This document shows, piece by piece, positions 26,585 to 46,876 of a DNA stretch of 64,000 nt. Source of the DNA: Candidatus Omnitrophota bacterium (lineage in GTDB: Bacteria; Omnitrophota; Omnitrophia; Omnitrophales; Aquincolibacteriaceae); contig JAZDJU010000040.1 of NCBI GenBank assembly GCA_043803685.1, positions 1 through 64,000 on the forward strand, written 5' to 3'. Position numbers and translations under genes: made by a program. How positions within the stretch are numbered: position 1 is the first letter of the stretch; every line of letters begins with the position of its first letter. The notes under the pieces were generated by a model. The model saw nothing but the letters and a program-made list of their open reading frames with translations. It ran no database searches and was not told the DNA's origin.

Positions 26585-26607
26585 TCCGACTTTCCCCTAA
26601 AAAACAT

Positions 26608-26652: not shown

Positions 26653-26664
26653 CTGAGATGGGCC

Positions 26665-26970: not shown

Positions 26971-28139
26971 ATGAATGGAAAAAAATTCTTTATGTCTTAG
27001 CGGGATTTCTGGCGTGTTTTTATCTTCCGGTCGAAAACCTTCGCTTCACCAACGCGATCTTTGAGGCGCTCGCGCTGGTCAAATGGTATGCCCGCGAGCA
27101 TGTGATCCTTTGTCTTGTCCCCGCGTTTTTTATCGCCGGAGCCATTTCCGTATTTGTCAGTCAGGCGTCTGTCATGAAATATTTCGGAGCGAAAGCCAAT
27201 AAATTCCTTTCTTACAGCGTTGCTTCGGTTTCGGGGACGATCCTGGCCGTATGTTCCTGCACCGTTTTGCCGCTTTTTTCGGGGATCTATAAAAGAGGCT
27301 CCGGCCTCGGGCCCGCGATCGCCTTCCTTTATTCGGGGCCTGCCATCAATGTTCTCGCGATCATCCTGACGGCCCGCATCCTCGGGTGGGAACTTGGCCT
27401 TGCCCGAGCGATCGGAGCGGTAGTTTTTAGTGTGGTGATCGGGCTCCTGATGCATCTGATCTTCCTCAAAGAGGAACAAGCGCGCCATGCAGAAGGTAAT
27501 TTCAATGTGGGGGAAGTGAAAGAAACCCGGCCGTTAGGTAAAACGATCCTGTATTTTGGTTCGATGATCGCGTTCCTGGTTTTTGCGAACTGGGGCAAGC
27601 CTCTTGAGGGCGATCATGGTGTTTGGGCTCTGATCTATCAATATAAGTGGTGGATCTCCGGTCTGTCCTTGGCTTCGCTTGCGATCATGTTGATCTCATG
27701 GTTCAAAAAAGAAGAACTGAAGGAATGGACCTCTGCCTCATGGACTTTTGCGCTTCAGATCCTGCCGCTTCTTTTGGGCGGAGTGCTGATCTCCGGATTC
27801 CTGTTGGGCCGTGTAGGTCATGAAGGGATCATTCCTTCGAAGTACGTGGTGGCGCTAGTGGGCGGGAATTCCTTTTTTGCTAATTTCTTTTCGTCCATTG
27901 TCGCGGCCTTTATGTATTTTGCCACATTGACCGAAGTGCCGATCCTGCAGGGGCTGATGAATTCCGGGATGGGGAAAGGACCCGCGCTTGCGCTTCTTCT
28001 CGCCGGTCCCGCGCTCAGTCTTCCTAGCATGCTCGTGATACGAAGTGTGATCGGAACAAAAAAAACAGTGGTCTATGTAAGCCTCGTCGTAGTCATGGCC
28101 ACGATCAGCGGCATGATCTTTGGTGTGATCGCTCAATAG
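26967..28139 (+). CDS. arsP: DUF318 / ArsP-type permease
   Basis: AVCSCTVLPLF, AFLYSGPAIN, MYFATLTEVP, LLAGPALSLP. Confidence 0.85.
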   Translation: MNEWKKILYVLAGFLACFYLPVENLRFTNAIFEALALVKWYAREHVILCLVPAFFIAGAISVFVSQASVMKYFGAKANKFLSYSVASVSGTILAVCSCTVLPLFSGIYKRGSGLGPAIAFLYSGPAINVLAIILTARILGWELGLARAIGAVVFSVVIGLLMHLIFLKEEQARHAEGNFNVGEVKETRPLGKTILYFGSMIAFLVFANWGKPLEGDHGVWALIYQYKWWISGLSLASLAIMLISWFKKEELKEWTSASWTFALQILPLLLGGVLISGFLLGRVGHEGIIPSKYVVALVGGNSFFANFFSSIVAAFMYFATLTEVPILQGLMNSGMGKGPALALLLAGPALSLPSMLVIRSVIGTKKTVVYVSLVVVMATISGMIFGVIAQ

Positions 28140-28150
28140 GAGATTGGGAA

Positions 28151-28384
28151 ATGAAAATAGAGATTTTGGGAACGGGTTGTCCGAAATGCAAACAGCTCAC
28201 CGCGAATGTCGAAGCGGCGGTCAAAGAGCTGAATCTTCAGGCCGAGGTTGGCAAGGTCACGGATATCGACAAGATCACGGACTACGGAGTCATGATGACG
28301 CCCGCGCTGGTGGTTGACGGGATCGTGGTCTCCTCGGGAAAATTGCTCAACAAGGACGAGATCAAAAGGATCCTCGCGAAATAA
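28151..28384 (+). CDS. small redox-active thioredoxin (MTH895/TM0996 family)
   Basis: ILGTGCPKC, YGVMMTPALVVDG. Confidence 0.92.
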   Translation: MKIEILGTGCPKCKQLTANVEAAVKELNLQAEVGKVTDIDKITDYGVMMTPALVVDGIVVSSGKLLNKDEIKRILAK

Positions 28385-28396
28385 CAGGAGAGAGAA

Positions 28397-28837
28397 ATGA
28401 AAAAGAATTTTGGGATCTTTCTTTTACTGGCGGCTGTTGCGCTGGCAAGTAATTTATTTTTTGGTGGTTCTGCGACCTTGGCCGAGGAGGCTCCGGCGGG
28501 GGGCACGGTCACGGCGTATTATTTCCACGGGACCTTTCGCTGCCCTACTTGTCATAAATTGGAAGCGTATGCCAAAGAGGCCATAGAAAATAATTTCAGG
28601 AATGAGCTGGCTTCCGGAAAACTCTCGTTCAAGATCGTGAATATCGAGAACAAGGGGAACGAGCACTTCGTAAAGGACTACCAGCTCTACACAAAATCTG
28701 TGGTCCTTTCTCTCACAAGGGATGGCAAAGAGATCCGCTCTAAGAATCTCGATAAGATCTGGGAATATGTCCGGAATAAAGACCGTTACGAAAATTATGT
28801 TAGGGATGAAGTGGCCGCATTTCTGAAGGAGGCGTGA
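28397..28837 (+). CDS. arsF: ArsF-family periplasmic thioredoxin-like protein
   Basis: signal peptide, YYFHGTFRCPTC, KNL.KIW. Confidence 0.8.
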   Translation: MKKNFGIFLLLAAVALASNLFFGGSATLAEEAPAGGTVTAYYFHGTFRCPTCHKLEAYAKEAIENNFRNELASGKLSFKIVNIENKGNEHFVKDYQLYTKSVVLSLTRDGKEIRSKNLDKIWEYVRNKDRYENYVRDEVAAFLKEA

Positions 28838-29532
28838 TGGATCCTTTTTGGGTGGGCTGGTTTTCCGCGCTTTGGCTCGGCATTCTGACTTCAATCAGTC
28901 CGTGCCCGTTGGCTTCGAATATCGCGGCGGTTTCTTTCTTGTCGAAAAAGATCGCGCACCCGGCGGCTGTTTTTGTTTCAGGCCTCGCGTATACGTTTGG
29001 CAGAATGGCATCCTATGCTGCGGTGGGGTGGCTCATCATTCATTCTTTGGTGGGCATTCCGCAGATCTCCATGTTTCTCCAGAAATACATGGGGAAAGCG
29101 CTAGGGCCGATCTTGGTCGTGACAGGGTTGATCCTGCTCGAGGTCCTTGTGTTCCGGCTTCCCGGATTTTCTCTTTCCCAAAAGCATCACCATAAACTCG
29201 CCGAATCCGGGGCGCCGGGCGCTTTTCTTCTCGGTTTTATCTTCGCGCTCGCGTTCTGTCCCGTGTCCGCGGCGCTTTTCTTTGGAAGCCTCATTCCCCT
29301 GGCGCTGAATCATCCTTCGAGCACGCTCCTGCCATTCATCTACGGGATCGGTACCGGCTTGCCTGTGTTGGCGTTCGCTGTGGCAATAGCCCTTGGCGTA
29401 AAGTCGCTAAGCCATTGGTTCCACAAGCTGACGAAGATCGAACTTTATACGCGCAAGATCACAGGCGTCATCTTCATCGGCGCGGGCATTTACTACGTTT
29501 GGGCTTATTGGTTACAGGGAGGGAGCTCATGA
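28834..29532 (+). CDS. arsG: ArsG-family (CcdA-like) permease
   Basis: [33 protein letters not shown]. Confidence 0.82.
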
Positions 29533-30575
29533 GCGAATGCCCTAAAAAGCAGTTGTCATTTTTAGACCGCTTTTTAACACTTTGGATCTTTCTCGGCATG
29601 GGGGTGGGCGTTCTCGCGGGGTATTTTTATCCGCCGGTCGTAAGCTTTTGGAACAAATTCCAGGTGGGCACGACCAATATCCCGATCGCCATAGGGCTTA
29701 TTCTCATGATGTACCCGCCGCTCGCCAAGGTGAAATACGAAGAGCTCGGCGATGTGTTCAAGAACGTCAGGGTCCTCGGGTTGTCGCTCGTCCAGAACTG
29801 GGTGATCGGTCCCGTGCTCATGTTCGTGCTGGCGATCACTTTTTTGCGCGGTTATCCGGAGTACATGGTCGGGCTCATTATGATCGGCCTTGCCCGTTGC
29901 ATTGCCATGGTCATTGTCTGGAACGACCTCGCGGAAGGGGACGCCGAATATTGCGCGGGACTTGTGGCGTTCAACTCGATCTTTCAGGTCCTGTTTTTTT
30001 CGCTTTACGCGTGGGTCTTCATCACGGTCCTGCCGCAGTGGTTCGGACTTCAGGGCGCGGCGGTGGATATCACGATCACCCAGATCGCCAAGAGCGTATT
30101 TATCTATCTCGGCATTCCTTTTCTTGCGGGGATGCTGACACGGTTCGTCCTGCTTAAGATCAAGAGCAAAGTCTGGTATGAAACTAAATTTATCCCGTCG
30201 ATCAGCCCCGTGACGCTCATCGCGCTTCTCTTCACGATCGTTGTGATGTTCTCGCTGAAAGGGGAGGCGATCGTTAAGATCCCTATGGATGTTGTCCGTA
30301 TCGCGGTCCCGCTGCTTATTTATTTTGTCGTGATGTTCCTCATTTCTTTTTTTATGAGCCGCAAGATTAGGGCGACCTATGCTCAATCCGCGACGCTGTC
30401 CTTTACCGCCGCGAGCAATAATTTCGAGCTTGCTATCGCGGTGTCCGTGGCGGTGTTTGGCATTCATTCCGGAGCCGCTTTCGCGGCGGTGATTGGACCT
30501 TTGGTTGAGGTGCCTGTCCTGATCGGACTTGTGCATGTGGCGCTCTGGCTCAAACGTAAATATTACGCCGAATGA
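29529..30575 (+). CDS. acr3: ACR3 family arsenite efflux transporter
   Basis: [46 protein letters not shown]. Confidence 0.96.
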
Positions 30576-30666
30576 AAAGGAGGGTGTGGCGATTTTTCCA
30601 GGTTGGATAAAGTGTGTGATGGGGATAGAATAACAGCGGTTTTTTCATAACCACAAGGGGGACGCG

Positions 30667-31443
30667 ATGAAAAAAGCACTTTCGATACTCATTATTTTAA
30701 CGCTTGTCTTGGGGGTAGCCCCGAGAGGTTTTGCCGCGGAGGCCGCCGCCACGCACTTGCCTTTGATCGGTGAAGACGCGCCCGCTTTTACGGCGGAGAC
30801 CACTCAGGGGACGATCAATTTTCCGGCGGACTACAAAGGAAAATGGATCATTCTTTTCAGCCACCCGGCGGATTTTACGCCCGTCTGCACCACCGAGTTC
30901 ATGACTTTTGCTTCCATGAAACCCGAGTTCGATCAATTGAACACCCAGCTGGTCGGGCTTTCGATCGATGGTCTTTACAGCCATATCGCGTGGCTCAGGA
31001 CGATCAAGGAAAAGATCGAATTTAAAGGGATGAAGAACGTCGAAGTGATTTTCCCGCTCATCGCGGACATCAAGATGGAAGTGGCCAAGAAATACGGCAT
31101 GCTCCAACCCTCGGCGAGCGACACCAAAGCGGTGCGCGCGGTCTTCATCATTGACCCGGCAGGCAAGATCCGGGCCGTCCTCTATTATCCACTCTCGAAC
31201 GGCCGCAACTTCGAGGAGATCAAGCGCTTGCTGATCGCCATGCAGACCTCCGATGCCTACCAGATCGCCACGCCGGCCAACTGGCAGCCGGGCGATGATG
31301 TGATCGTGCCTCCGGCGGGTTCCTGCGGGACCGCCAAGGAACGCATGGAAAAATCCGGGCAGGGAGAGATCGATTGCAAGGACTGGTTCATGTGCTTCAA
31401 AAAACTCTCCAAAGAAGAGGTCGAGACGGCAACCCGTTCGTAG
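30667..31443 (+). CDS. peroxiredoxin (Prx6 subfamily) with N-terminal signal-like segment
   Basis: FSHPADFTPVCTTEF, GRNFEE, TPANW, DWFMC. Confidence 0.93.
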   Translation: MKKALSILIILTLVLGVAPRGFAAEAAATHLPLIGEDAPAFTAETTQGTINFPADYKGKWIILFSHPADFTPVCTTEFMTFASMKPEFDQLNTQLVGLSIDGLYSHIAWLRTIKEKIEFKGMKNVEVIFPLIADIKMEVAKKYGMLQPSASDTKAVRAVFIIDPAGKIRAVLYYPLSNGRNFEEIKRLLIAMQTSDAYQIATPANWQPGDDVIVPPAGSCGTAKERMEKSGQGEIDCKDWFMCFKKLSKEEVETATRS

Positions 31444-31523
31444 ATCCAAGATCTCCGGGGGCCCGCCACAGACGGGCTCCCGGGAATTGGTCGTGTGTAG
31501 CGGAAAAAATGGGAAATAACTCT

Positions 31524-32918
31524 ATGAAAAAGATGATGGCCCTGCTCCTGAGCGCTTTTTTGATGATGCCTTCGGTCCTTTTTGCCGGAGAGGCCGCGGC
31601 GCCGGTTTCAAACGCCGGAATGCAGACGATGACCTTTCTCGATTGCTACGCGAAGGTGCTCGCCCATTACCCCGCGCTGAAAAAGAAATATGAAGAGCTC
31701 GCGCAGGCGAAGGCCGGGAAGAACCTCGCTTGGGCGGAACTCTTTCCAAAAGTCCAGGGCGTCACCTCCTTGACCACGACGGACGATCCCGTGGGCGTTT
31801 TCGGGGATCTTCTCCGGCAGGAGTCCTTCACCGCGCGGGATTTTGAGCTGAACTCGCTCAATTCACCGCGCCACCGCACGAACTATCATTTCGGCCTGAC
31901 GGGGGAGATGCTTCTCTTCGATTCTTTCAACACGATTTCCAAGATCCGCTCCGCGCGCCGGCTCGTGAAGTCCGCGGACCTCGAGGCGGATTTCACGGAA
32001 ATGGAAGCTTCGCTTGTGACCCTTGAAAGTTATCTGGCGGTCCTGCATGCTCAAGAACTTCTGAATATCACGGCCGCTCTGAAAGAAGTCGTCGACCGGG
32101 ACCTCAAACAAGCTGAGGACCTGAAACAAAAAGGCATGATCCTGGGCGCGGATTTCTACGCGGCCAAGGTCGCCGCGGCGGGGATCGAACGCGCGCTCAA
32201 CCGGGCGCGGGCCAGGGTGAAGACCTCGCGCATGTTCATGAATATTCTCATGGGTGAAGATCCCGTGCTGGAATGGAACGCGACGGGAAAACTTTCCGGG
32301 TCGGCGCAGGACAAAGGCCCGCTTCAGGAGTGGATCGCCCAGGCGTATCAACAGCGCAAGGACCTTGTGGCGATGGATCAGCTGATCGACGCCCAGCGCA
32401 TTGAGTCGCTTCGTCAGAAGACCTCATTCCTTCCCAAGATCTACGGGTTCGGCAGTCTCGACGCCGATAGCCACGACCTGCGCTCGAGCGGCAAGAATTT
32501 TACCGTGGGGATCAAAGGCACGATGGACCTTTTCGATCCGTCATATTTAGGACGCACGCAGCAGGCCAAACACCGTTATGAGGCACTCAAAGCGGATCGC
32601 CAGGCGCTTCGTGACGAGATCGCGAAACAGTTGATCGGGGAACTCGCGAGTTACGAGACTGTGGTTATCGATCAGCCGGTCCTGTCGCAGGCCTTCCAGG
32701 ACGCGAAAGAGGCGAGCGACCAGACCGCGAAGCTTTATCAGGAGGGCCGGAAATCCATCGCCGATCTTCTCACGATCCGCGGCGTGTATCTCGAGACCGC
32801 GTCCGGATTGCAGCAGCTCTTGCTCGCGCTTGAGCTGGAGCACGCGAAACTTCTTTTTCTTTCAGGGCAGTTGACCGAGGATAACCTTCACCTGGTGAAT
32901 GCAAGGTTGCAGGGATAA
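31524..32918 (+). CDS. TolC family outer-membrane efflux protein
   Basis: signal peptide, two OEP repeats (..LFP.. / ..FLP..), YQEG...ADLL. Confidence 0.85.
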   Translation: MKKMMALLLSAFLMMPSVLFAGEAAAPVSNAGMQTMTFLDCYAKVLAHYPALKKKYEELAQAKAGKNLAWAELFPKVQGVTSLTTTDDPVGVFGDLLRQESFTARDFELNSLNSPRHRTNYHFGLTGEMLLFDSFNTISKIRSARRLVKSADLEADFTEMEASLVTLESYLAVLHAQELLNITAALKEVVDRDLKQAEDLKQKGMILGADFYAAKVAAAGIERALNRARARVKTSRMFMNILMGEDPVLEWNATGKLSGSAQDKGPLQEWIAQAYQQRKDLVAMDQLIDAQRIESLRQKTSFLPKIYGFGSLDADSHDLRSSGKNFTVGIKGTMDLFDPSYLGRTQQAKHRYEALKADRQALRDEIAKQLIGELASYETVVIDQPVLSQAFQDAKEASDQTAKLYQEGRKSIADLLTIRGVYLETASGLQQLLLALELEHAKLLFLSGQLTEDNLHLVNARLQG

Positions 32919-37231: not shown

Positions 37232-38089
37232 ATGATCCTCGCAAAGCTCGGACTGGAGCACCAATCCCTTCTCCAGAACCGTCTGAAAAGCACCGGCTCC
37301 TCTCTTTCCGAATTCAGTTTCGCGAACCTTTATCTTTTCCGCGAAACCCACGACTACCATGTGCTCACGGCTCCGGAAGGGATCTTCGTCCGCGGTAAGG
37401 CCTACGACGGCGGCCGTTTTCTGATGCCGGCTGAAAAGATCGAAACCGAACGGGCGGACGTCCTGCTCGGGCTTTTAAAGGATGGGGAATATCTTTTCCC
37501 GGTTCCTGAAGAATGGCTCCCGGCTTTCGACGGGAAAAAAGTTTCTTTCGAGGCTTCGGAAGACGATTCGGATTATGTTTATACGGTCGAGAAGCTTTCG
37601 GCCTACCGGGGACCGGAACTCCACGGTCAGAAGAATCTTTTGAACCAGTTCCTTGCGCGGTACACGCCCGAAGCCCGGCCCCTGACCCAAGACCGCATGG
37701 ACGACGCGCGGACGGTCCTTGATGCCTGGCAGGAGGATGTGGGCGAGGAAAAGTCCTCGACGGATTTTTTCCCGTGCCGTGAGGCTTTCGAGCGTTACGA
37801 CGAACTCATTCTTTGTGGCGGGATCTATTATGTCGAAGGGGAACCGGCAGGGTTCGTGATCGGCGAGGAGATTCGCCCCGACATGTTCGCCCTTCATTTC
37901 GCGAAAGGCCGGCGCAAGTTCAAAGGGCTCTACCAGTATATGTACAACCACTTCGCGAAGCTCTTGCCGAAGCAGTACGCCTTTCTCAATTTCGAGCAGG
38001 ACCTCGGGAAACTGGCGCTCCGCATTGCGAAATCCTCTTACCACCCCGACAAGGTCCTCAAAAAATTCCGCGTCCGTCCCGTTCTTTAG
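37232..38089 (+). CDS. DUF2156 / phosphatidylglycerol lysyltransferase-like domain protein
   Basis: SEFSFANLYLF, DYVY, KN..N.F, HFAKG, NFEQDLG..LR.AK.SY.P. Confidence 0.85.
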   Translation: MILAKLGLEHQSLLQNRLKSTGSSLSEFSFANLYLFRETHDYHVLTAPEGIFVRGKAYDGGRFLMPAEKIETERADVLLGLLKDGEYLFPVPEEWLPAFDGKKVSFEASEDDSDYVYTVEKLSAYRGPELHGQKNLLNQFLARYTPEARPLTQDRMDDARTVLDAWQEDVGEEKSSTDFFPCREAFERYDELILCGGIYYVEGEPAGFVIGEEIRPDMFALHFAKGRRKFKGLYQYMYNHFAKLLPKQYAFLNFEQDLGKLALRIAKSSYHPDKVLKKFRVRPVL

Positions 38090-38108
38090 CGGCAGAGACT
38101 GTCTTGGA

Positions 38109-38567
38109 TCAACGGTAGGCGCTGCCGCCGTCGAAGACGATGGTGGTTTTGTTCAGACCCGAGAGGTCCGAATAATCCAAAGTGATCTCTTCTCCCTTAT
38201 AGTAACCCTTCCACATGTAATGCTTGGCCCCGGGGCTAACTTCGCTGGGATTCCCGAAATCCCGTAGCAGTCTTTTCCTGATATCGTCACCGACGCGCGT
38301 CGTGTCCCAAGTGACCCGGATCTTGTTGAGTCTCAGGGCGTCGTTGAACATGAATTGCGCGACGCAGGGTTCGCCTCCGAGGAAAACGTCTGCCTCGATC
38401 ATTTGCTTCGTCCGTGTAGAACGGATATCCCAGTCTTTCTTTTCCAGTTTTTCGAGGACGCTTGCCTTGCTGTCGCCCCAGTTATAGCCCTCCAGACGAA
38501 AGGCCAGGGCGGACGGAGCTCCGAGGATGGCGGTCAGTAATACAGTCAGCAAGATCTTCTTAAGCAT
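38109..38567 (-). CDS. hypothetical secreted protein
   Basis: SD AAGGAGG, signal peptide ending ALA, F.G..WG.S motif. Confidence 0.7.
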   Translation of the reverse strand: MLKKILLTVLLTAILGAPSALAFRLEGYNWGDSKASVLEKLEKKDWDIRSTRTKQMIEADVFLGGEPCVAQFMFNDALRLNKIRVTWDTTRVGDDIRKRLLRDFGNPSEVSPGAKHYMWKGYYKGEEITLDYSDLSGLNKTTIVFDGGSAYR

Positions 38568-38734
38568 GGATAACCTCCTTGGAGTCCAATGTTCGATATA
38601 TGCATCGCCCTTTCGGAGTATAAATTGACAGCTGTTTTCACGAAAGTTCTCGGGAACGGCGGGACTCCTTATTTGACACGCTCCACCCATTCGGGCAGAA
38701 TGTGACCGCTTTTAACCCGTTAGTAGAGGACTTG

Positions 38735-38965
38735 CCCCGTTAGAGATTGACGGGGGATATTTAAAGAATGGGTTTGCAGCAGGATGTGAAAATTTTTTTG
38801 ATGGAATTTCTGACATAGACGGAAACGCTCTGGGCGTTTCCTATCTCTAAAAAGGGGTTCACCCCGTTAGAGATTCATTTATGGCTAGGGCGAAATATTT
38901 TAAAAGAGTTCCAGTCTAAACATGAAATACGGAAGAATTCAGAGCGTTTCCTATCTCTAACGGGG
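38735..38965. repeat. two tandem IR-bounded elements (CCCCGTTAGAGAT...ATCTCTAAcGGGG)
   Basis: units 38735-38857 and 38862-38965 share termini and the motif GCGTTTCCTATCTCTAA. Confidence 0.75.
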
Positions 38966-39252
38966 TGAATATGGAATTCAATATTGAACGGGTCGCGGAA
39001 CTCGCGCGGCTCAATCTGAAACCCGAAGAAAAGCAGAAGCTCGCCAAAGACCTTGGCGCCATTCTGACCTATGTTCAGAAGCTGGACGCCCTGGACACGA
39101 AAAATGTCGAGCCCACGAGCCACGTCCTTAATATGGAGAACGTGTTCCGCGCTGACGAGGTGAAACCCTCGGACGCCGCGACGAAGGCTCTGGAGCACGC
39201 TCCGGAGACGGAAGGCCCTTTCTTTAAAGTTCCAAAAATTGTGAACAGATAA
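38965..39252 (+). CDS. gatC: Asp/Glu-tRNA amidotransferase subunit C
   Basis: VAELARL, LDTKNVEPTSH, NVFRAD, FFKVPKI. Confidence 0.95.
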   Translation: MNMEFNIERVAELARLNLKPEEKQKLAKDLGAILTYVQKLDALDTKNVEPTSHVLNMENVFRADEVKPSDAATKALEHAPETEGPFFKVPKIVNR

Positions 39253-39279
39253 GCGTTAAGTGATAAGCGTTAGGCTAAA

Positions 39280-40710
39280 ATGAATACACCCCTGCACCAA
39301 CTGACAGTAAAAGAAGCGATTGAGTTCTGCCAAAAAGGCGGGGCCCGGGATCTCCTGCACGCCTTGACCGAACGGTCTCAAAAACTAAATCCCCGGGTAA
39401 ATGCTTTTTTGCGGATGGGTGCCTCTGACAGCAACTTGCCGCTTTCTGCTGAACGCTTACCGCTCTCCGGCGTTCCCATCTCTATTAAAGACAACATCTG
39501 TATCGACGGCGCGGAGGTGACTTGTGCTTCAAAGATCCTTGAAAAACACGTGCCGCCTTACGACGCGACCGTGATCACAAAACTTAAAAATGCCGGCGCA
39601 ACACTTTTCGGCCAGTGCAACATGGACGAGTTCGCGTTCGGTTCCTCCTGCGAAACCTCGGCGTTCGGCCCGTGCCGGAACCCGTGGGACCTCGAGCGTG
39701 TACCGGGCGGTTCAAGCGGCGGCTCCGCGGCCTCGGTCGCGGCGGACATGACGGTTGCGGCGCTCGGCTCCGACACCGGAGGCTCCATTCGTCAGCCCGC
39801 GGCTCTTTGCGGCATTGTCGGCGTGAAACCCACGTACGGGCGCGTGTCACGTTATGGACTCATTGCCTTCGGTTCAAGCTTTGACCAGATCGGTCCTCTT
39901 ACGAAGACCGTGGAGGACTCGGCTATTTTGTTGAATGTCCTGTGCGGCCACGACCCGAAGGACTCGACCTCGTCACCGGTGAAAGTTCCGGATTTTACGC
40001 AGGCGCTCACGCGCGACGTGAAGGGCCTGAGGATCGGCTTGCCGAAAGAGTATTTCATTGAAGGGATCGATCCTGAGATCGAGAAAAGCGTGCTCCAGGC
40101 CGCGGAAACTTATAAGAAGCTCGGCGCCGAGATCAAAACCATCAGTCTGCCGCACACGGAGCACTCAGTCGCGGTCTACTATATTGTGGCCGTCGCGGAG
40201 GCGAGCTCGAACCTCGGCCGCTTTGACGGCGTGGAGTACGGCCTTCGCGTGCCGTCGAAGGACCTGCGCGAAATGTATTTCGAGACCCGCGACCGGGGAT
40301 TCGGTCACGAAGCGAAGCGTCGCATTCTGCTCGGAACCTTTGTTCTCTCGGCGGGTTATTACGAGGCGTATTACCTGAAAGGGCAGAAGGTCCGCACGCT
40401 CATTCGCCAGGATTTCGAACAGGCGTTCAAAGAAGTGGACGTCATCCTTTCGCCGACGTCGCCCACCGCGGCGTTCAAGATCGGCGAAAAGGTCTCGGAT
40501 CCTATTGCCATGTACCTCTCGGATATTTTTACGATTCCCGCGAACCTGGCCGGGATTCCCGCGATGTCGGTGCCGTGCGGTTTCACCTCGGGCGGACTTC
40601 CCATCGGCATGCAGCTCATGGCTCGTCCGTTCGACGAGTCCACCATGCTCCGCGCCGCCCACGCCTTCGAGCAGGAAGCCGGAATCTATAAGCTCAAACC
40701 CAAATTGTAG
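39280..40710 (+). CDS. gatA: Asp/Glu-tRNA amidotransferase subunit A
   Basis: IKDN, NMDEF, PGGSSGGS, GSDTGGSIRQPA, SAGYYEAYY. Confidence 0.97.
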   Translation: MNTPLHQLTVKEAIEFCQKGGARDLLHALTERSQKLNPRVNAFLRMGASDSNLPLSAERLPLSGVPISIKDNICIDGAEVTCASKILEKHVPPYDATVITKLKNAGATLFGQCNMDEFAFGSSCETSAFGPCRNPWDLERVPGGSSGGSAASVAADMTVAALGSDTGGSIRQPAALCGIVGVKPTYGRVSRYGLIAFGSSFDQIGPLTKTVEDSAILLNVLCGHDPKDSTSSPVKVPDFTQALTRDVKGLRIGLPKEYFIEGIDPEIEKSVLQAAETYKKLGAEIKTISLPHTEHSVAVYYIVAVAEASSNLGRFDGVEYGLRVPSKDLREMYFETRDRGFGHEAKRRILLGTFVLSAGYYEAYYLKGQKVRTLIRQDFEQAFKEVDVILSPTSPTAAFKIGEKVSDPIAMYLSDIFTIPANLAGIPAMSVPCGFTSGGLPIGMQLMARPFDESTMLRAAHAFEQEAGIYKLKPKL

Positions 40711-40714
40711 GCGT

Positions 40715-40755
40715 TTGACAGGGTGGTTACTTGGTGCTACAATGTAGCTACATTG
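40715..40755 (+). promoter_or_regulatory. TA promoter with palindromic operator
   Basis: TTGACA-17-TACAAT; perfect palindrome CAATGTAGCTACATTG at 40740-40755. Confidence 0.75.
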
Positions 40756-40773
40756 GGTTAACCGGAGGAACTT

Positions 40774-41001
40774 ATGATAAAGCACCTAACGAGCCACGGA
40801 AACAGTCTCGCCTTGATTATCGAAAAACCGGTGTTGCAGCTTTTGCGCATTACTGCCAAGACTCCGCTGGAGGTCAACACCGACGGTCGTAGTCTCATTA
40901 TTTCGCCTGTGAATGACGATGCCAGGGAAAAGAAATTTAATGCCGTCATGGAAAAGATCCACAAGCAGTACGCGACCACTTTCAAGGCGCTTGCGGATTA
41001 A
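40774..41001 (+). CDS. AbrB/MazE-type antitoxin
   Basis: K.LT.HGNSLALII.K, LIISP, C-terminal Y...F.ALA. Confidence 0.88.
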   Translation: MIKHLTSHGNSLALIIEKPVLQLLRITAKTPLEVNTDGRSLIISPVNDDAREKKFNAVMEKIHKQYATTFKALAD

Positions 41002-41006
41002 TAGCT

Positions 41007-41456
41007 GTGAAGCGCAAAACTAAAAAAACAAAATTCTCCGTTCGCGAAGAGGGCGCTGTTTATAGGCCTTCTGCCCCTGTTTTTTTGACGCACGACGAGG
41101 TGTTGAAGCTACATGTCCGGCAAATTGAGCTTTTTGGCGGCACCGACGGCATTCGAGATATGGCGTTATTGCATTCGGCATTGGCTCAGCCAGAGGCGAG
41201 TTTTGGAGGACATTGGCTTCACAATGACATTTTTGAAATGGCCGCCGCTTATGCTTATCATATTTGCCAGAACCACCCGTTTTTTGATGGCAATAAGCGC
41301 ACAGCCCTTGACGCGGCCCTGATGTTCCTAGGCACGAACGGAATCTTGTTCAAAGATCCTAAAGAGATCTTTATTGGCGTGATGCTTTCGGTCGCGAGAG
41401 GGAAGATGGGTAAAAAAGAGCTGGCGCAGATTTTTCGCGATCTGCCCCGGGAATAG
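41007..41456 (+). CDS. doc: Doc/Fic family toxin
   Basis: FGG..GIRD..LL.SA, NHPFFDGNKRTA. Confidence 0.9.
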   Translation: MKRKTKKTKFSVREEGAVYRPSAPVFLTHDEVLKLHVRQIELFGGTDGIRDMALLHSALAQPEASFGGHWLHNDIFEMAAAYAYHICQNHPFFDGNKRTALDAALMFLGTNGILFKDPKEIFIGVMLSVARGKMGKKELAQIFRDLPRE

Positions 41457-41480
41457 ACATTCGGGCGTGCGTCAGCAGCT

Positions 41481-42627
41481 GATTTTCCAGCGGGCTGGGA
41501 AATTGGGCAAGGGGGCGTAGATTTTTCCGGCGCCGGAAAAATTAGCAGCCAATTCATCGGCGGGCCGATGAATTGAGGCGAACAGAAGATTTATCGGACG
41601 TCCGACGAATTGAGGGGGCAAGGCCTCCCGGGTAGCTCGAGGCTTTATAGCTTAAAGGATATACAGCAAAACAGCCGCCAGCGGCTGAATTGACCAACCG
41701 TGCGGCGAAGTTGTTAAGCAGAATGTACGTAAAACAAATGGGGAGCTAACCCCTCCCCACCGGACGCCGTCCGGTTTTCTCGCATGCGGGAAAATTGGAG
41801 CACTGAATTCATCGGCGGGCCGATGAATTGAGGGGGCAAGGCTTCCCGGGTAGTTCGAGGCCTCATATCATATATGATATGAGGCAAAAACGGGCGCGGG
41901 CGACTGAATTGGCTGGTGAGATAATTCAAAATAATGAGAGAACCAAGGCGAGGTGGCGATATGCGTAGAATGACAGCGGGTCTGATCGCTTTTATGTTTC
42001 CGCTCATGTTGGGGACCACCTACATTGTCAGAGAGAATGGCAAAGAGGTAGGGACTTGGGTGGAGAAGGATGGAAGTGATGTTACTCGATATATCGACAA
42101 TACAGTGACCAAGACAGGATCGCAAGCTATCGCAGAGCAGCAGATTGTTACCTCCGGACGAGCTAAGGTCAGCGACGAGCAAGAGAGAATAGAAGGTGAA
42201 AAATACATGGAAAGGGAAGAGACCTTTGGTATTCGTGAGGGATTGACGCGAGCGCAACTTGAAAATATTTCCATGGAAAAAGGCCTGCTCCGAAAAACAA
42301 AATATTCAGATAATGATACTTCCACAGGGGAAGGATTTTGGATCTTTGAGTATGTGACAGAAACAAAACATTACAAGCACCTTTTTAAGGTCTATCTAGA
42401 ATCAAACTATTGGACGGTAAAGAAAGTTTTTCATAGCGTTGAAGAGCGGTGACAAATCCTGGCAGTGATTTAACCGGACGTGATTTTCAATTTTCCAGTG
42501 GGCTGAAGAATTTGTACTGAATTAGTCGGCGGGCCGACGAATTGAGGGGGCAAGGCCTCCCGGGCAGTTCGAGGCCTCATATCATATATGATATGAGGCG
42601 ATTTAGTCGCTGGCGACCAAATTGACC
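41481..42627 (+). repeat. three composite repeat units built from 24-bp RATT-N16-AATT hairpins and an 11-6-11 core
   Basis: colinear units 41588-41691, 41806-41910, 42520-42623; 11 fixed-length 24-bp elements in total. Confidence 0.85.
41961..42452 (+). CDS. hypothetical protein with N-terminal hydrophobic segment (AT-rich, repeat-flanked)
   Basis: SD GAGGTGG, open frame between repeat units 2 and 3. Confidence 0.65.
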   Translation: MRRMTAGLIAFMFPLMLGTTYIVRENGKEVGTWVEKDGSDVTRYIDNTVTKTGSQAIAEQQIVTSGRAKVSDEQERIEGEKYMEREETFGIREGLTRAQLENISMEKGLLRKTKYSDNDTSTGEGFWIFEYVTETKHYKHLFKVYLESNYWTVKKVFHSVEER

Positions 42628-42725
42628 AGGAAATTATAGGCCCGAGACTTCGGTAAAAGGAAATACGTAGGGCGTCCAGTGGCAGGCCGCCTACTTTTGA
42701 ACGCTAACACTGAGGAGAAAATCAG

Positions 42726-42908
42726 ATGAAAGAATATATTAATGGATTGGAGAAAGCGATAAACGACGAAAATGAACATCTTAACTTAATCAATCGATGT
42801 GAAAAAAAGGGGATACAAGGCTTTGATTATGAGGTGTTGCGTCGTCGAATTAAAGAGAACATATCCTTGTATCAAAGGTTGAAAAAACAAACAGAGAGCT
42901 CCTCTTAA
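42726..42908 (+). CDS. hypothetical small helical protein
   Basis: SD GAGGAG, 60 aa, AT-rich. Confidence 0.55.
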   Translation: MKEYINGLEKAINDENEHLNLINRCEKKGIQGFDYEVLRRRIKENISLYQRLKKQTESSS

Positions 42909-42916
42909 GGATCTTT

Positions 42917-43729
42917 ATGGGCTTATTTCTTTTTGATGCGTTTAAATGCTTTTACAGCGGGGGGGTTGGTCCATTTTCAGTTAGAACATTGCATGATATC
43001 AAATCCTCTCGCTGTTGTTTATGTGGAAGTAAGGTTTACCCAACCGAGCTATTGGGGAATGCATGGATAAAGCAAAATGATGAATATAAAATCTTATGCT
43101 ATCGATGCAGAGGGCTAGAAGGTAAATTTAATAGCGCAAAATTGAGTGGAGAAGTAGTCCTTTCAACAGCAAAAGTGGCGGCAGAAATTATTCGTTCAAG
43201 GTGCCATAAATGCAATCGCAAGATAGATGCAAACTCTGTTATTCAAGGAATAAGGTCAGGCGGCTCACATGTAACAGTGCATTGCGAAGAATGCCAGTTT
43301 TGGCCTTTTCCGAACTCAACGAGATTTAGTTGCGGAGAATGTGGAGCTTTGAACACACATCGCGACGAGGGCAGCTGGGAGGATGAGAAATGCTGGAGTT
43401 GCAATCTATCACATAAAGAGCAATGGTTTTATAACTTGCCTTGCGAAGATGAAACCATGTATCTAGAAAAAGAATGTCCCAATTGCGATAGAGAAAATCC
43501 TCAAAAAAATTGTTCCGTATGTAAGGGGGGTGGAATTTTAGTTGCGAGCCAAGAAATACCAGAATGGATTTCTTATCTAAAAAAGAAAAAAGGATATACG
43601 CAAAAGAATTTAGCGATATTGTTAGATGCTTCCGAGGATTTAATAAATGATATCATGGCCAAAAAAGCAAAACTAACGCATGGCCAACTTCAGAAGCTAT
43701 ACGTCGATATTGAGAAAGAATCTTCTTAA
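42917..43729 (+). CDS. multi-CxxC zinc-ribbon protein with C-terminal XRE-type HTH
   Basis: CLC, CYRC, CHKC, CEEC, CGEC, CWSC, CPNC, CSVC; LKKKKGYTQKNLAILLDAS. Confidence 0.65.
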   Translation: MGLFLFDAFKCFYSGGVGPFSVRTLHDIKSSRCCLCGSKVYPTELLGNAWIKQNDEYKILCYRCRGLEGKFNSAKLSGEVVLSTAKVAAEIIRSRCHKCNRKIDANSVIQGIRSGGSHVTVHCEECQFWPFPNSTRFSCGECGALNTHRDEGSWEDEKCWSCNLSHKEQWFYNLPCEDETMYLEKECPNCDRENPQKNCSVCKGGGILVASQEIPEWISYLKKKKGYTQKNLAILLDASEDLINDIMAKKAKLTHGQLQKLYVDIEKESS

Positions 43730-43825
43730 CCGTAGTAACGTTAATAGCCGAGCAGTGTTTGGCGAAGAGCAATAAAAAGGAATTTTGGCTATAGTCTGTG
43801 GTCTGCAGTCTAAGCGGAGCGAAAT

Positions 43826-45319
43826 ATGAATTACGAACCTGTGATTGGACTTGAGGTCCACGTACAACTGAAGACGAAGAGCAAGCTCTTCTGCTCATGC
43901 TCCACGGAATTTGGGGCGGGGGGGAACGAGCATACGTGCCCGGTGTGTCTGGGGTGGCCGGGGTCGTTGCCGGTCTTAAACGAAGCGGCCTTGAAGCTCG
44001 GGATCCGCGTCGGGCTCGCGCTTAATTGCAAGGTGGCGGAGCGGCTCAAATTCGACCGGAAGAATTATTTCTATCCCGACCTTCCCAAGGCGTATCAGAT
44101 CTCGCAATTCGACATGCCGGTGAATGGCAAAGGTTTCCTCGATATCGAAACGCGAGCCAAGAGCCAAGGGCCACGGGCCACGAAGAACGAAGAACAAAAC
44201 GTGGGGCGTGGGTCGTGGGACGTGGAACGAAAGAGGATCGGTATCACTCGCGCGCACCTGGAAGAGGACGCGGGGAAGCTTCTCCATGAAGGCATCGCGG
44301 ACGGGAGCCTCGTGGATTACAACCGTGGCGGCATTCCGCTCCTCGAGATCGTTTCCGAGCCGGACCTTGGCAGTCCGCAGGAGGCCTATGATTACCTCAC
44401 GGCGCTCAAAGCCATTCTTCAATATCTGGAAGTGAGCGACTGCGATATGGAAAAGGGGAGCCTCCGCTGTGACGCGAACGTGTCGGTGCGCCCCGTGAGT
44501 CAGGCCAAGCTTGGCACGAAAGTCGAGATCAAGAATCTGAATTCCTTCAAGATGGTGCACAAAGCCATTCAGTATGAGATCGAACGCCAGACCGAGGCGC
44601 TCGAACGCGGGGAAACCATTGTTCAGGAAACGCGGCTCTGGAATGACGGGAAAGGCACGACCTTTTCCATGCGTTCCAAGGAAGAAGCGCACGATTACCG
44701 TTATTTCCCGGAGCCGGACCTTGTGCCGTTCACGCTCACGCGCGAAACCGTGGAAGAGATCCGCAAGACGCTGCCCGAGCTGCCGCTTGAGCGCGCGAAA
44801 CGGTTCATCAAAGAATTTGGCATTCCGGAATACGACGCCTACGTGCTCGTGCAGGAAAAGAAAGTCGCGGCCTATTTCGAATCGTGTGTGCGCGAAGGGG
44901 CCGCGGCAAAGTCCGCGAGCAATTGGATCCAAACCGAGCTTTTGGCGCTACTTAACGCGAAAAATATCGCGATCGACCAATGTCTGGTTTCACCGCACGC
45001 GCTCGCGGGACTCATTCGTCTTGTCGAGAAAGGGACGCTGAGCGGCAAGACCGCGAAGGATGTGCTTCAGGAAATGGCGGCGACGGGCAAGGCTGCGGAC
45101 ACAATCGTTCAGGAAAAAGGACTTACGCAGGTCTCGGACACGGGGTTGATCGAGAAAGCGGTCGAGAAGGCCATTGCCGCGAACCCGACCGCTGTCGCGG
45201 AATTCAAGGCCGGGAAGCAGAAGGCCCTCGGCGCGCTCGTCGGCGCGGTGATGAAAGAGACCGGCGGCAAGGCGAACCCGAAAATCGTGAATGAAATTTT
45301 GATGAAGAAGTTGTCCTAA
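43826..45319 (+). CDS. gatB: Asp/Glu-tRNA amidotransferase subunit B (with repeat-derived insertion)
   Basis: IGLEVHVQL, RKNYFYPDLPK.YQISQ, HLEEDAGK, RCDANVS, DYRYFPEPDL. Confidence 0.97.
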   Translation: MNYEPVIGLEVHVQLKTKSKLFCSCSTEFGAGGNEHTCPVCLGWPGSLPVLNEAALKLGIRVGLALNCKVAERLKFDRKNYFYPDLPKAYQISQFDMPVNGKGFLDIETRAKSQGPRATKNEEQNVGRGSWDVERKRIGITRAHLEEDAGKLLHEGIADGSLVDYNRGGIPLLEIVSEPDLGSPQEAYDYLTALKAILQYLEVSDCDMEKGSLRCDANVSVRPVSQAKLGTKVEIKNLNSFKMVHKAIQYEIERQTEALERGETIVQETRLWNDGKGTTFSMRSKEEAHDYRYFPEPDLVPFTLTRETVEEIRKTLPELPLERAKRFIKEFGIPEYDAYVLVQEKKVAAYFESCVREGAAAKSASNWIQTELLALLNAKNIAIDQCLVSPHALAGLIRLVEKGTLSGKTAKDVLQEMAATGKAADTIVQEKGLTQVSDTGLIEKAVEKAIAANPTAVAEFKAGKQKALGALVGAVMKETGGKANPKIVNEILMKKLS

Positions 45320-45421
45320 CTGCCGGGACACGTGCCACGATCCACGCACCACGAAATCCGTTTTTCGCGCCCCGTGGCCCATGGGAATGACAAGCGTTCA
45401 GTCTAAAACGCGGGAGAGAAC

Positions 45422-45727
45422 ATGACGGTCGTATTTGCTCAGCTGACGATGGTTTTCGCGGGCCTTGTTTTTTTGATGCTCGCCGGGTCTTTTTTCGCGA
45501 GGATCCGAAATCCCCAGGGAGGGAAGAAGCCCATCGCTTTGTTCTGTCTGGTGGAGTTCATGATCTTTGTTTGCGCGGTCATGTTCCTGATCTTTCGTAA
45601 TGGGACCTCTGAAAGCGTTACGGCGCTCTTGATGCCCGCTTTGGGTCTGACCTTGATCGTGAGCCTTCCGGTCCTCGCGATCGTTTGGGCGACACAGAAA
45701 ACGCCGCAAGCGAAGAAGAAAAAATAA
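45422..45727 (+). CDS. hypothetical membrane protein
   Basis: SD GGAG, three TM segments; flanked on both sides by heptamer-IR repeats. Confidence 0.6.
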   Translation: MTVVFAQLTMVFAGLVFLMLAGSFFARIRNPQGGKKPIALFCLVEFMIFVCAVMFLIFRNGTSESVTALLMPALGLTLIVSLPVLAIVWATQKTPQAKKKK

Positions 45728-45871
45728 CAGGATGACGGTAAGCCAGAGAGTGCCCATGAAGTTCTTCCTCAGAAAATATTCTAAATTCGGGGGCACGTGC
45801 CATGAGCCACGGGCCACGAAAAACGGCTTTCGTGGTGCGTGGTACGTGGCACGTGGCACGCGTAGGTCAGC

Positions 45872-46876
45872 ATGCTGACCCTCGGCATCGAAACCTCGTG
45901 CGACGAAACGTCGTGCTCCATTCTTCGCGGTAAAGACACGCTTCTTTCGAACGTCGTTTCCTCCAGTCTTTTCCGGCATAAGCAATTCGGCGGCGTCGTG
46001 CCCGAGATCGCGTCCCGGCATTGCATGGAGCAGATCCAATGCGTGTTCGAGGAAGCGCTTCAGGAAGCCAAGATCAAACCCAAAGACCTTGATCTTATTG
46101 CCGTAACGCAGGGACCGGGGCTCATTGGTTCACTGCTGGTCGGCGTCGCGTTCGCCAAGGCGCTCGCTTACCAACTCGAAATTCCTCTCGTAGGTGTGAA
46201 TCATATGGAAGGTCATCTCGTCGCGAACTTTCTCGGGCAAAAGGAACCCAAACGTTACGTGGGGCTTCTCGTCTCGGGCGGGCACACGATGCTCACCTTC
46301 TGCGAAAAAGGAAAGATCCATATCCTGGGCGAGACGGTGGACGACGCCGTGGGCGAAGCCTATGACAAGGTCGCGAAGATCATGGGACTCAGTTATCCCG
46401 GTGGGCCCATGCTCGACAAACTCGCGCGGCAGGGGAATCCTCGCGCAGTCCCGTTCACGCGGCCCAAACAGGATGAGCGTTTCGGCTTCAGTTTCAGCGG
46501 CGTGAAAACAGCCGTACTTTACAAGATGAAAGACCCGAAGACGGGAGCGCCGCTTCCGGACGCGCCGTCCGTGAAAGACATGGTGGCGAGTTTCCAACAT
46601 GCCGCGATCGGCTGGCTCGTCGAGAAGACGCTTGACGCCGCGGAGTTCAAAAAAGTTTCCGATGTCGTGGTGGGCGGAGGCGTGAGCGCGAATTCCTGGC
46701 TCCGCGAAAAACTAACGCGGGACGCCGCGGCCAAAGGCATCAAAGTCTGGCTTCCGCCGTTCGTCCTGAGCACGGACAACGCCGCGATGATCGCACGCCG
46801 CGGGTTCGAGCTTTATCAAAACGGGAAACGGTCGAAACTAAATATGACCGGAGATCCTGCGCTGCAAATAAAATAA
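45872..46876 (+). CDS. tsaD: tRNA N6-threonylcarbamoyladenosine transferase subunit
   Basis: LGIETSCDET, GGVVPEIASR.H, HMEGH, VSGGHT, TDNAAMI. Confidence 0.97.
   Translation: MLTLGIETSCDETSCSILRGKDTLLSNVVSSSLFRHKQFGGVVPEIASRHCMEQIQCVFEEALQEAKIKPKDLDLIAVTQGPGLIGSLLVGVAFAKALAYQLEIPLVGVNHMEGHLVANFLGQKEPKRYVGLLVSGGHTMLTFCEKGKIHILGETVDDAVGEAYDKVAKIMGLSYPGGPMLDKLARQGNPRAVPFTRPKQDERFGFSFSGVKTAVLYKMKDPKTGAPLPDAPSVKDMVASFQHAAIGWLVEKTLDAAEFKKVSDVVVGGGVSANSWLREKLTRDAAAKGIKVWLPPFVLSTDNAAMIARRGFELYQNGKRSKLNMTGDPALQIK

Follow-up and report, generated by a model that had tools for sequence, protein, structure and literature searches.

Gene order at the gatA–gatB locus

The window analysed here, a 64,000 nt stretch of contig JAZDJU010000040.1 from a Candidatus Omnitrophota bacterium, carries in the middle of its gatCAB operon an array of short hairpins and of composite repeat units with a palindromic core, which is associated with three AT-rich open reading frames (ORFs). 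The gene order is gatC, gatA, a phd-like gene, doc, the hairpin/unit array with its three ORFs, and gatB. The genome of the window is referred to as G000 and its contigs by C-numbers, the window lying on C40, while L-numbers denote loci or contigs of other sources. The G000 assembly comprises 2.89 Mb in 133 contigs, with 91% completeness and 6.6% contamination. The features of the locus are as follows.

39280..40710, plus strand: gatA, the left conserved flank (ORF call)
40715..40743, plus strand: candidate sigma-70-like promoter before phd-doc, TTGACA-17-TACAAT with TG (11 of 12 consensus matches)
40774..41001, plus strand: Phd-like antitoxin, 75 aa (NCBIfam TIGR02609 doc_partner, E 2.8e-7, below cut-off)
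41007..41456, plus strand: Doc (Fic-family) toxin, type II toxin–antitoxin (TA) pair (Pfam Fic 5.7e-18; TIGR01550 DOC_P1 5.7e-19)
41481-41504, 41520-41543 and 41551-41574, no strand: three 24-bp palindromic hairpins (direct reading and strict scan)
41588..41691, plus strand: unit 1, with hairpin 41588-41611, GGGCAAGGC box 41612-41643, core 41641-41668, hairpin 41668-41691
41741..41783, plus strand: conserved element GGGAGCTAACCCCTCCCC + CCGGACGCCGTCCGG + TTTT, terminator-like, found after a core in three loci
41773..41796, no strand: hairpin of the same 24-bp class
41806..41910, plus strand: unit 2, with hairpin 41806-41829, box 41830-41861, palindrome 41860-41885, imperfect hairpin 41887-41910
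41934..42452, plus strand: cargo ORF A, 172 aa (163 aa from ATG 41961), GC 0.44, no family match
42489..42512, no strand: hairpin of the same 24-bp class
42520..42623, plus strand: unit 3, with hairpin 42520-42543, box 42544-42575, palindrome 42574-42599, hairpin 42600-42623
42667..42694, plus strand: conserved leader element GTAGGGCGTCCAGTGGCAGGCCGCCTAC, 3' of unit 3
42726..42908, plus strand: cargo ORF B, 60 aa, GC 0.34, no family match
42917..43729, plus strand: cargo ORF C, 270 aa, with many CxxC pairs and a C-terminal helix-turn-helix (HTH)-like stretch
43826..45319, plus strand: gatB, the right conserved flank, found in 20 of 20 genomes of the genus

Anatomy of the array

Three colinear units of ~105 nt had been described from the letters of the window, and direct reading confirms their coordinates (41588-41691, 41806-41910, 42520-42623) as well as the 56-57 nt that were said to separate the paired 24-mers (56, 57 and 56 nt in units 1, 2 and 3). 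A repeat search returned them as one family of three copies and 108 nt, with 69% and 76% identity to the reference copy, and found the perfect 26-nt palindrome GCCTCATATCATATATGATATGAGGC in the two places where it was expected, at 41860-41885 in unit 2 and at 42574-42599 in unit 3. The core of unit 1 is indeed diverged, reading GGCTTTATAGC-TTAAAG-GATATACAGCA, and has the operator-like centre TATAGC-TTAAAG-GATATA at 41646-41663; together, the three units hold two types of half-site, and each has a centre of its own. Units 2 and 3 share an 84-nt stretch at 94% identity (blastn E 1.5e-29), which starts four bases before the left hairpin and ends at the last base of the palindrome, with divergent sequences beyond, while unit 1 matches both of them at 93-95% over 42 nt and differs in the core. 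As single strands, units 2 and 3 are predicted to fold into three separate hairpins of 22-26 nt. The core of unit 1 has no hairpin fold (whole-unit z = -1.0), so that a double-stranded reading with two half-sites suits all three cores.

The original prediction also stands with respect to the ORFs, one of which (41934-42452) lies between units 2 and 3 and two of which (42726-42908, 42917-43729) follow unit 3; with GC values of 0.44, 0.34 and 0.39 they are AT-rich compared to gatA (0.58), gatB (0.57) and the genome (0.52). The hairpins that it described are real but were undercounted, as the interval 41481-42623 contains 11 of the 24-bp class. The class consists of ATT, a GC-rich stem and AATT, usually with G next, and a strict scan of the 2.89-Mb assembly found 29 such hairpins in total, 6 of them within this 1.15-kb stretch. 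The full unit occurs only at this locus in the assembly. Rfam covariance models gave no match on 38000-46000, both strands, with E up to 1.

The element at 41741..41783 is identical at 37 of 37 positions to a copy in G016 and has a related copy at C31:29512, as well as a terminator-like call on the minus strand. Colinearity with unit 3 is seen in G007, in its single unit as well as in the DNA downstream of that unit; the leader element behind unit 3 is likewise colinear in G007 and shows 85% identity over 41 nt to G004. Three candidate assignments were rejected. The GGGCAAGGC box is not a conserved hairpin, the differences between species being without compensation, nor does it fit consistently, by eye or by consensus scan, a sigma-54 promoter or a sigma-70 -35 region. 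A leftward small RNA, running from the core of unit 2 to the minus-strand terminator-like site 41761-41737, was dropped, as neither G016 nor C31 preserves this arrangement.

A hotspot of gene turnover within gatCAB

DNA upstream of gatB was collected from 17 genomes of the genus, and both gatA and gatB were on the stretch in 15 of these, G000 included. Orthologs of gatA stand directly upstream of the gap in the 14 others (tblastn). The size of the gap varies from 0 to 3119 bp: 0 bp in G019 and G010, where gatA and gatB overlap, 113 bp in G017, 195 bp in G001, 430 bp in G007, 455 bp in G002, 840 bp in G014, 1096 bp in G005, 1226 bp in G011, 1696 bp in G018, 1918 bp in G009, 2007 bp in G016, 2109 bp in G012, 3064 bp in G004 and 3119 bp in G000. 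The ORF content also varies among all gap-bearing genomes that hold ORFs. The cargo includes RhuM-Fic with AbiJ/PDC-S32 (G012), HEPN_AbiU2 (G016), DUF2971/PDC-S31 (G009), a CDGSH protein (G011 and G014), a Rieske-flavoprotein (G005) and a recurrent pair of 71- and 77-aa ORFs without family match; none of 21 scanned gap ORFs matched a recombinase or transposase family. The question whether different ORFs occupy one conserved site is thus answered in the affirmative, as cargo and gap size differ across the 15 genomes, and the gatA–gatB gap is a defence-gene hotspot that splits an essential operon. That gatCAB tolerates gene turnover in its middle is of interest in itself.

Within the window, ORF C has a weak match to PADLOC PDC-M64C over residues 213-261, all of its matches being below threshold, and Atlas feature matches to HTH cro/C1 clusters at 0.86, which are a lead only. 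Its CxxC pairs and HTH stretch recall antitoxins that combine a zinc ribbon with an HTH, such as MqsA.

Two genomes carry additional starts of gatB. In G016 a second, diverged copy of the first 25 codons of gatB lies just upstream of the gene (L054, 6873-6947 of the oriented stretch), and in the gap of G017 a second, diverged copy of the first 12 codons precedes the working gatB. These extra starts fit traces of past replacements of the 5' end, as would be left by exchange of foreign alleles through the conserved flanks.

Distribution and inheritance of the unit

Nine units were obtained from seven sources: three from G000 and one each from G007, G012, G015, G016, G018 and metagenome contig L097. 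Their alignment comprises a hairpin, the box (GGGCAAGGC..GGYAG), an 11-nt link, the core, an A-run and a second hairpin. Pattern scans gave two loci in species-representative genomes and four in JGI metagenomes, all from this genus, among which L097 is the sole additional unit. A profile built from the nine units and run over 96 genomes of the order has full-length matches in 8 places in 6 genomes, and shorter matches in G052, which belongs to another genus, and in G006, both of them in the gatA–gatB gap after orthologs of phd-doc. Wherever the context is readable, units are found in the gatA–gatB gap only, and a genome-wide scatter, which would have spoken for an unrelated repeat, is not seen.

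Units of different species are about 70-76% identical, and the unit has multiplied in G000 only. Confinement to one locus combined with this divergence points to the unit being locus-specific, vertically inherited DNA. The single unit of L097 has the core type of unit 1, from which it follows that unit 1 is a variant in its own right and not a decayed copy. Two public DNA runs contained 6-8% of the sampled words; they cover the gatA and gatB flanks, phd-doc and, from ORF A, a single piece of 172 nt, and they give no joint within the array. No public RNA run was found to contain the locus.

The order gatA, phd, doc, (hairpins), unit, cargo, gatB is found in G052:C2:29334-32415 (L239) and in G006:C3 (L241), with the orthologs of the Phd-like antitoxin at the same position as in the window. 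As this order is common to a second genus, the arrangement predates the genus of the window. Directly behind the doc stop codon, G006 has the final 9 nt of the box together with a core variant.

At two loci, L013 (G018:C75, about 1390-1525) and L014 (G012:C3, about 1495-1630), an insert of ~110 bp that resembles a miniature inverted-repeat transposable element (MITE) lies inside the GCCATATATCATATATGATATATGGC core. It has imperfect terminal inverted repeats, an internal hairpin and a 9-bp target duplication, and it occupies mirror-image positions in the two genomes.

The core palindrome flanks genes of small XRE regulators

Over the nine units and the sites described below, the conserved positions of the core are TATAKC-N6-GMTATA. 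This strict motif occurs seven times in G000, compared to a mean of 0.75 in 20 shuffles and to none for the reversed motif, and all seven copies lie in XRE loci or in unit 1. The 16-mer ATATCATATATGATAT, when searched with up to one mismatch, is present in G000, in 10 of the 19 other genomes of the genus and in 13 of 66 genomes of the family (G000 included), with none for the reversed control; away from the gatA–gatB gap it is found just upstream of small XRE genes.

All three XRE paralogs of G000 are bracketed by such palindromes, one of which is directly upstream. The gene of subfamily 1 (C31:29881-30093) has type A cores ~25-30 nt upstream and ~25-40 nt downstream. At both genes of subfamily 2 (C31:156539-156748 and C117:15940-16149), TATATC-N6-GCTATA is followed after a few bases by the Shine-Dalgarno-like AAGGATGGA and then by the start codon, and a perfect 26-bp palindrome, GCCTTATAGCTTAWAAGCTATAAGGC, lies ~30-45 nt past the stop and before the next genes. 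On C31, where the XRE gene heads a restriction-modification operon, these next genes encode MazG-like, RE_BsaWI-like endonuclease, C5 methylase and Vsr proteins, and on C117 they are three ORFs without family match. The correspondence to the array extends to the bases: the core of unit 1 is the upstream site of subfamily 2 on the opposite strand, and units 2 and 3 have all 16 central bases and the GCC..GGC clamps in common with the sites of subfamily 1, including the downstream one. It also extends to other genomes, as 7 of 8 examined homologs of subfamily 2, in 7 genomes, have the motif upstream, as do 4 of 4 of the closest homologs of subfamily 1 (three within ~55 nt and one at ~515 nt).

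The proteins themselves are small. The two of 69 aa match Pfam HTH_3 (3.7e-13 and 5.5e-13), while the one of 71 aa has XRE-type NCBIfam matches below cut-off and a match to PADLOC Control_protein (3.2e-8); matches to the PADLOC Control_protein and capH models are found for the group, which has the common motif GLTQxxLAxxLxTSQSxIARIExGxQN. According to PMC2632904, small regulators of the C family are encoded by genes that are often leaderless and have a palindromic site directly before them, and these regulators are not limited to the vicinity of restriction-modification (R-M) systems. ORF C was considered as the cognate regulator and ruled out, since it has no BLASTP similarity to the 71-aa XRE protein and lacks the recognition-helix motif.

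The same palindrome in other phyla

The exact 20-mer GTATATCATATATGATATAC was found at 42 loci from Patescibacteria, Bacillota, Pseudomonadota, Chloroflexota, Planctomycetota and others. For each side of the 20-mer the longest ORF starting within 150 nt was taken, which gave 93 ORFs, 27 viral loci included. At 17 of the 42 loci an HTH_3 gene starts within this distance, in 16 of the 17 cases at 21 nt or less, and the adjoining XRE proteins of other phyla have the same motif as those of Omnitrophota. Eleven of the 17 are single ORFs in which an N-terminal HTH_3 is joined to a MurA-type (EPSP_synthase family) domain, with the 20-bp palindrome 2-83 nt before the start (L145, L147, L149, L152, L155, L160, L165, L166, L175, L179 and L182, from Patescibacteria and other bins). 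At five of these loci (L152, L155, L165, L166, L182) the ORF across the palindrome carries MurB-type domains, and the arrangement looks like a self-regulation of genes for cell-wall precursors. The neighbour is a GntR, LysR or TrpR-like gene at six further loci, a Gp49/HigB-like gene at another and a PIN gene at one more. On one viral contig, two HTH_3 genes diverge from the 20-mer, and one of the two encodes a Peptidase_S24 domain as well. This pattern is what the operator of a conserved XRE subfamily would look like, and it agrees with the C-protein family regulators as described in PMC2632904.

A second hotspot downstream of ligA

The subfamily 1 gene of C31 is located in another variable region, which lies 3' of ligA, is 1.5 to 7 kb long and ends at a DUF1016-SNase gene. 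Cores are present on the ligA-side stretch in G000, G015, G005 and G018, and the module of core and XRE gene is the only DNA common to these loci in four genomes. A TIR/ThsB-like gene (PDC-S66, 1.4e-65) stands behind one of the G015 cores, and the two cores that follow are on either side of the XRE gene. The G000 version (C31, ~25900-32900) encodes, among others, ORF6N, TPR and LamG/PEP-CTERM proteins ahead of the DUF1016-SNase gene, together with the 71-aa XRE, whose gene lies between two cores. It also contains, twice and before two different ORFs, a segment of ~170 nt which encodes MTEEENEG...

Hairpins and a palindrome within DUF1016 genes

Of the singleton hairpins outside the locus, 12 of 17 checked are located inside long ORFs, six of these being DUF1016_N genes joined to a YhcG or SNase nuclease domain and one a PALP-family gene. 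The hairpin at 41481-41504 is identical at 26 of 26 positions, on the reverse strand, to the palindrome within a C74 gene of the DUF1016 family. In each of the 11 full DUF1016_N copies of G000, the palindrome occupies the same position of the domain, just before the (K/E)L(S/T)WSH codons, where the amino acids vary while the pairing is kept. The same palindrome is found in both RhuM-Fic genes (G012, G004) and both ORF6N genes that were examined. Among six plasmid-borne DUF1016 homologs from five phyla, five have a palindrome at that position and one is without recognisable motif; in four of the six the palindrome score is one reached by 0.7% of random 80-nt windows.

Intergenic and intragenic palindromes are 92-100% identical over only 17-27 nt and have no flanking similarity. 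The array is not a decayed DUF1016 coding sequence, as tblastn found no flanking protein similarity (best E 0.023), and a search for displaced C-terminal (YhcG_C) fragments of DUF1016 proteins found none. Among 27 hairpins, 96.5% of cells are paired and 60 cells show a double change compared to 17 in shuffles; the hairpins had been chosen for pairing, so that only the variety of the stems is informative. Literature searches on the DUF1016/YhcG family gave no description of the palindrome, and the Omnitrophota genome preprint makes no mention of integrons, hotspots, gatB or palindromes. The hairpins of the array may be relics stacked on one another, may mark breakpoints or landing sites, or may act as RNA or insulator elements. 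They tie the locus to a conserved palindrome inside a widespread family of nuclease genes.

Interpretation

We favour, with a probability of roughly 0.6, a reading in which the units are operator-bearing heads of cargo transcription units, located in a defence hotspot and answering to XRE repressors that are encoded elsewhere. In the hypervariable gatA–gatB island, each unit would provide one cargo transcription unit with its 5' regulatory module. The AT-rich palindrome of the unit, TATAKC-N6-GMTATA flanked by GC clamps and 26 bp long in units 2 and 3, would be the operator for small C-protein-like XRE regulators, with the products of C31:29881-30093, C31:156539-156748 and C117:15940-16149 as candidates. 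The bound dimer would cover the -10-like hexamers TATCAT/TATGAT and thereby repress, or set the timing of, ORF A on the one hand and of ORF B and ORF C, with read-through towards gatB, on the other. The units would have been inherited vertically at one locus and multiplied locally in G000, and cargo would be turned over by ordinary recombination, between the gatA and gatB flanks and between repeated units and palindromes, with no Xer reaction at the core. The anatomy of the array, its restriction to one locus, the variability of the cargo and the match of the core to XRE-flanking sites are observed; binding, repression, promoter activity and the route of cargo exchange we infer. If the proposal is correct, repressors of the controller type, known from R-M systems, govern a wider set of foreign genes through "orphan" operators placed before cargo that lacks its own regulator, and in this little-studied phylum such operators would together act as a genome-wide switch for defence genes that have been newly acquired.

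Several points weigh against this proposal. A close XRE protein is encoded in G000, G015 and G018 among the six genomes with full units, and the other three are without an intact one in their incomplete assemblies: G007 (76% complete) and G016 (87%) have only HTH proteins of 32-38% identity, and in G012 (91%) the XRE copy is interrupted by a stop. The -35 region in the units is poor, and a consensus scan called no plus-strand promoter at any core. The symmetry of the palindrome and the concerted change of both its arms would be equally expected for a recombinase dimer. An operator accounts neither for the conserved GGGCAAGGC box nor for the hairpins, and it is silent on why units 2 and 3 share 84 nt at 94% with differing right sides.

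The core had originally been read as a site of the Xer/dif type, at which a tyrosine recombinase acting in trans would capture or shuffle the ORFs between units as cassettes, with the 28-bp core as the crossover site. Several features recall such a system: one foreign-looking ORF is bracketed by direct repeats, the cargo varies among genomes of the genus, and the homology of units 2 and 3 stops exactly at the right end of the palindrome. Elsewhere XRE genes are bracketed by cores, and the module of core and XRE gene is found in non-homologous surroundings in four genomes. The MITE-like insertion into the core with its 9-bp duplication recalls insertion sequence (IS) elements which target pdif sites, as reported in PMC10132070. 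We nevertheless consider this explanation very unlikely, as the core itself does not bear it out. A dif-like site of the genus was identified at G000:C12:22281-22308 (TCCTATAATGTATCTTATGTAAAGT = GAGTCCTATAA-TGTATC-TTATGTAAAGT), occurring exactly once per genome in 18 of 20 genomes (reversed control 0), so that dif is a different sequence at another place; in register the cores have only 3-5 of 28 positions in common with it, and 13-16 of 28 in the best of 26 placements by offset and strand. The 11-6-11 geometry is a parse that any 28-bp palindrome allows, and the conserved positions are 6-6-6. Nor was a unit copy found beside a tyrosine recombinase, ten Phage_integrase-family matches being distributed over nine contigs with none on C40 or C31, and no recombinase lies in or beside the gap in any genome that was read. 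The units diverge with the species like orthologous DNA and keep to one locus, the three units have two half-site types and three centres, cores lie at fixed short distances before XRE start codons, and in other phyla they also separate murB from a divergent HTH-murA gene, a position in which recombination makes no sense. The proposed separation from integron attC arrays is supported: the best match to the integron integrase (IntI) model TIGR02249 in the 91%-complete assembly has 95.6 bits, with a cut-off of 265, and units 2 and 3 fold as separate short hairpins. What is left of the gene-cassette system is the presence of variable ORFs behind a conserved repeat, while the recombinase-site nature of the core is given up.

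Two other explanations start from the hairpins. The 22-26-bp palindromes, rather than the AT-rich core, could be the active sites, used by an integrase or by nucleases of the DUF1016 type as breakpoints, landing pads or copy-paste units, and the array would then be a stack of relics from serial gene replacement at the hotspot. The fixed position and retained pairing in 11 of 11 full DUF1016_N genes of G000, the occurrence in RhuM-Fic, ORF6N and (at the 0.7% level) four of six plasmid-borne DUF1016 genes, and the match between intergenic and intragenic copies over 17-27 nt only would all be accommodated, as would the borders of the ligA hotspot and the C117 XRE locus, at both of which DUF1016 genes stand, and the adjacency of such genes to integrases on C7, C5 and a Pseudomonas plasmid. 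G004, moreover, lacks the unit exactly between two hairpin ends that are present in G007, and an island named "4.DUF1016" is listed among excising islands in the preprint 10.64898/2026.09.08.750204, the list not saying what the name stands for. We regard this explanation as unlikely, since the variable region on the ligA side ends not at the palindrome of the DUF1016 gene but about 245 nt before it, displaced YhcG_C fragments were not found, and the arms vary in sequence between hairpins, which speaks against a single sequence-specific recombinase. A combination, in which hairpins mark the breakpoints of a palindrome-directed gene replacement that swaps defence cargo at hotspots while XRE-operated promoters head the swapped units, seems to us similarly improbable; were it true, cassette arrays would here be built in a way not yet described, with neither integron nor Xer machinery. 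The hairpins may alternatively act at the level of RNA or chromosome, with no role in gene mobility, as a mosaic of the kind formed by repetitive extragenic palindromes (REPs) and bacterial interspersed mosaic elements (BIMEs), for instance in 3'-end protection, in insulating gatCAB from foreign promoters or as protein-binding sites. The array does consist of short extragenic palindromes with conserved linkers, several hairpins behind a core have the terminator-like order A-run, stem, T-run (in G016 and G012, and on the minus strand of unit 1), and G001 and G002 have arrays without core or cargo. We think this quite unlikely, as the hairpins are not spread genome-wide, most copies outside the locus lie inside DUF1016 genes, and most of the hairpins lack a U-tract on either strand. 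A servicing of the hairpins by a REP-associated tyrosine transposase (RAYT) was ruled out, the Y1 transposase genes of the genome going with another, dispersed repeat family.

Similarity to known systems

Integron cassette arrays consist of attC sites, each a single long imperfect hairpin with R and L boxes, which are used by IntI. Short ORFs separated by structured repeats, and defence or addiction cargo, are common to those arrays and the one described here, which differs by three short hairpins per unit in place of one long bulged attC hairpin, by the lack of an IntI at cut-off and by an operator-like site for each cargo. In the REP/BIME elements of enterobacteria, conserved linkers connect short imperfect palindromes into extragenic clusters, and the array resembles them in this respect, but these elements occur in hundreds of copies, whereas the array is locus-specific and its palindrome is also embedded in DUF1016, RhuM and ORF6N coding sequences. 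Hotspots of defence genes between conserved core genes are a general concept, to which the housekeeping flanks (gatA and gatB, and ligA at the second site) and the genome-specific defence or TA cargo (AbiJ/PDC-S32, AbiU2, PDC-S31, Fic/Doc, TIR) conform; the present case is different in that an essential operon is split whose genes overlap in the simplest genomes of the genus, and in that a conserved noncoding module and a hairpin array are present.

The C proteins with their C-box operators (PMC2632904) are a close parallel to the proposed regulation. They too are small HTH_3 regulators (69-71 aa here), with a palindrome immediately upstream of their own gene, at short spacing to the start codon, a second site before effector genes, and an association with R-M, mobile or defence genes. 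The proposed operators of the window, in contrast, have no adjacent regulator gene and stand before unrelated cargo, and a single palindrome of 18-26 bp is found here instead of the 35-bp double box of the PvuII type. The pdif modules of Acinetobacter (PMC13141974, PMC7399989, PMC10132070) are likewise bracketed by sites of ~28 bp, include TA pairs, depend on XerC/XerD, which would have to act in trans here as well, and are targeted by IS elements. The array departs from them in having a core unlike the dif of its genus, a single chromosomal locus with vertical inheritance, and colinear composite units in place of sites with alternating XerC/XerD orientations.

Further observations in G000

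The dif-like site itself (GAGTCCTATAATGTATCTTATGTAAAGT at C12:22281-22308) is single-copy and nearly invariant in the 18 of 20 genus genomes in which it occurs, from which this Omnitrophota genus appears to use an ordinary XerCD-type dif.

DUF1016 genes adjoin integrase genes on C7 and C5 and also on plasmid pTTS12 of Pseudomonas putida S12 (L219), where the gene for the DUF1016-type PDDEXK nuclease overlaps the end of the upstream site-specific integrase gene by a few bases. C7:4500-9500, C5:1500-6500 and C45:4000-10500 represent one region in three versions of about 85% identity, with NTP_transferase followed by a DUF1016-YhcG gene, and an integrase next on C7 and C5. These are either paralogous islands or the product of more than one strain in the bin, whose contamination is 6.6%.

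A dispersed repeat, (A)GTCCCAATNCTTATCAATTTCAAC-loop-GTTGAAATTGGGGC, is found in both orientations at about 24-30 places in G000, examples being C106:35415-35435, C99:1225-1244 and C99:1308-1327. On C106, one copy precedes a Y1 (HUH) transposase gene by ~190 nt and may thus form a REP/RAYT pair with it.

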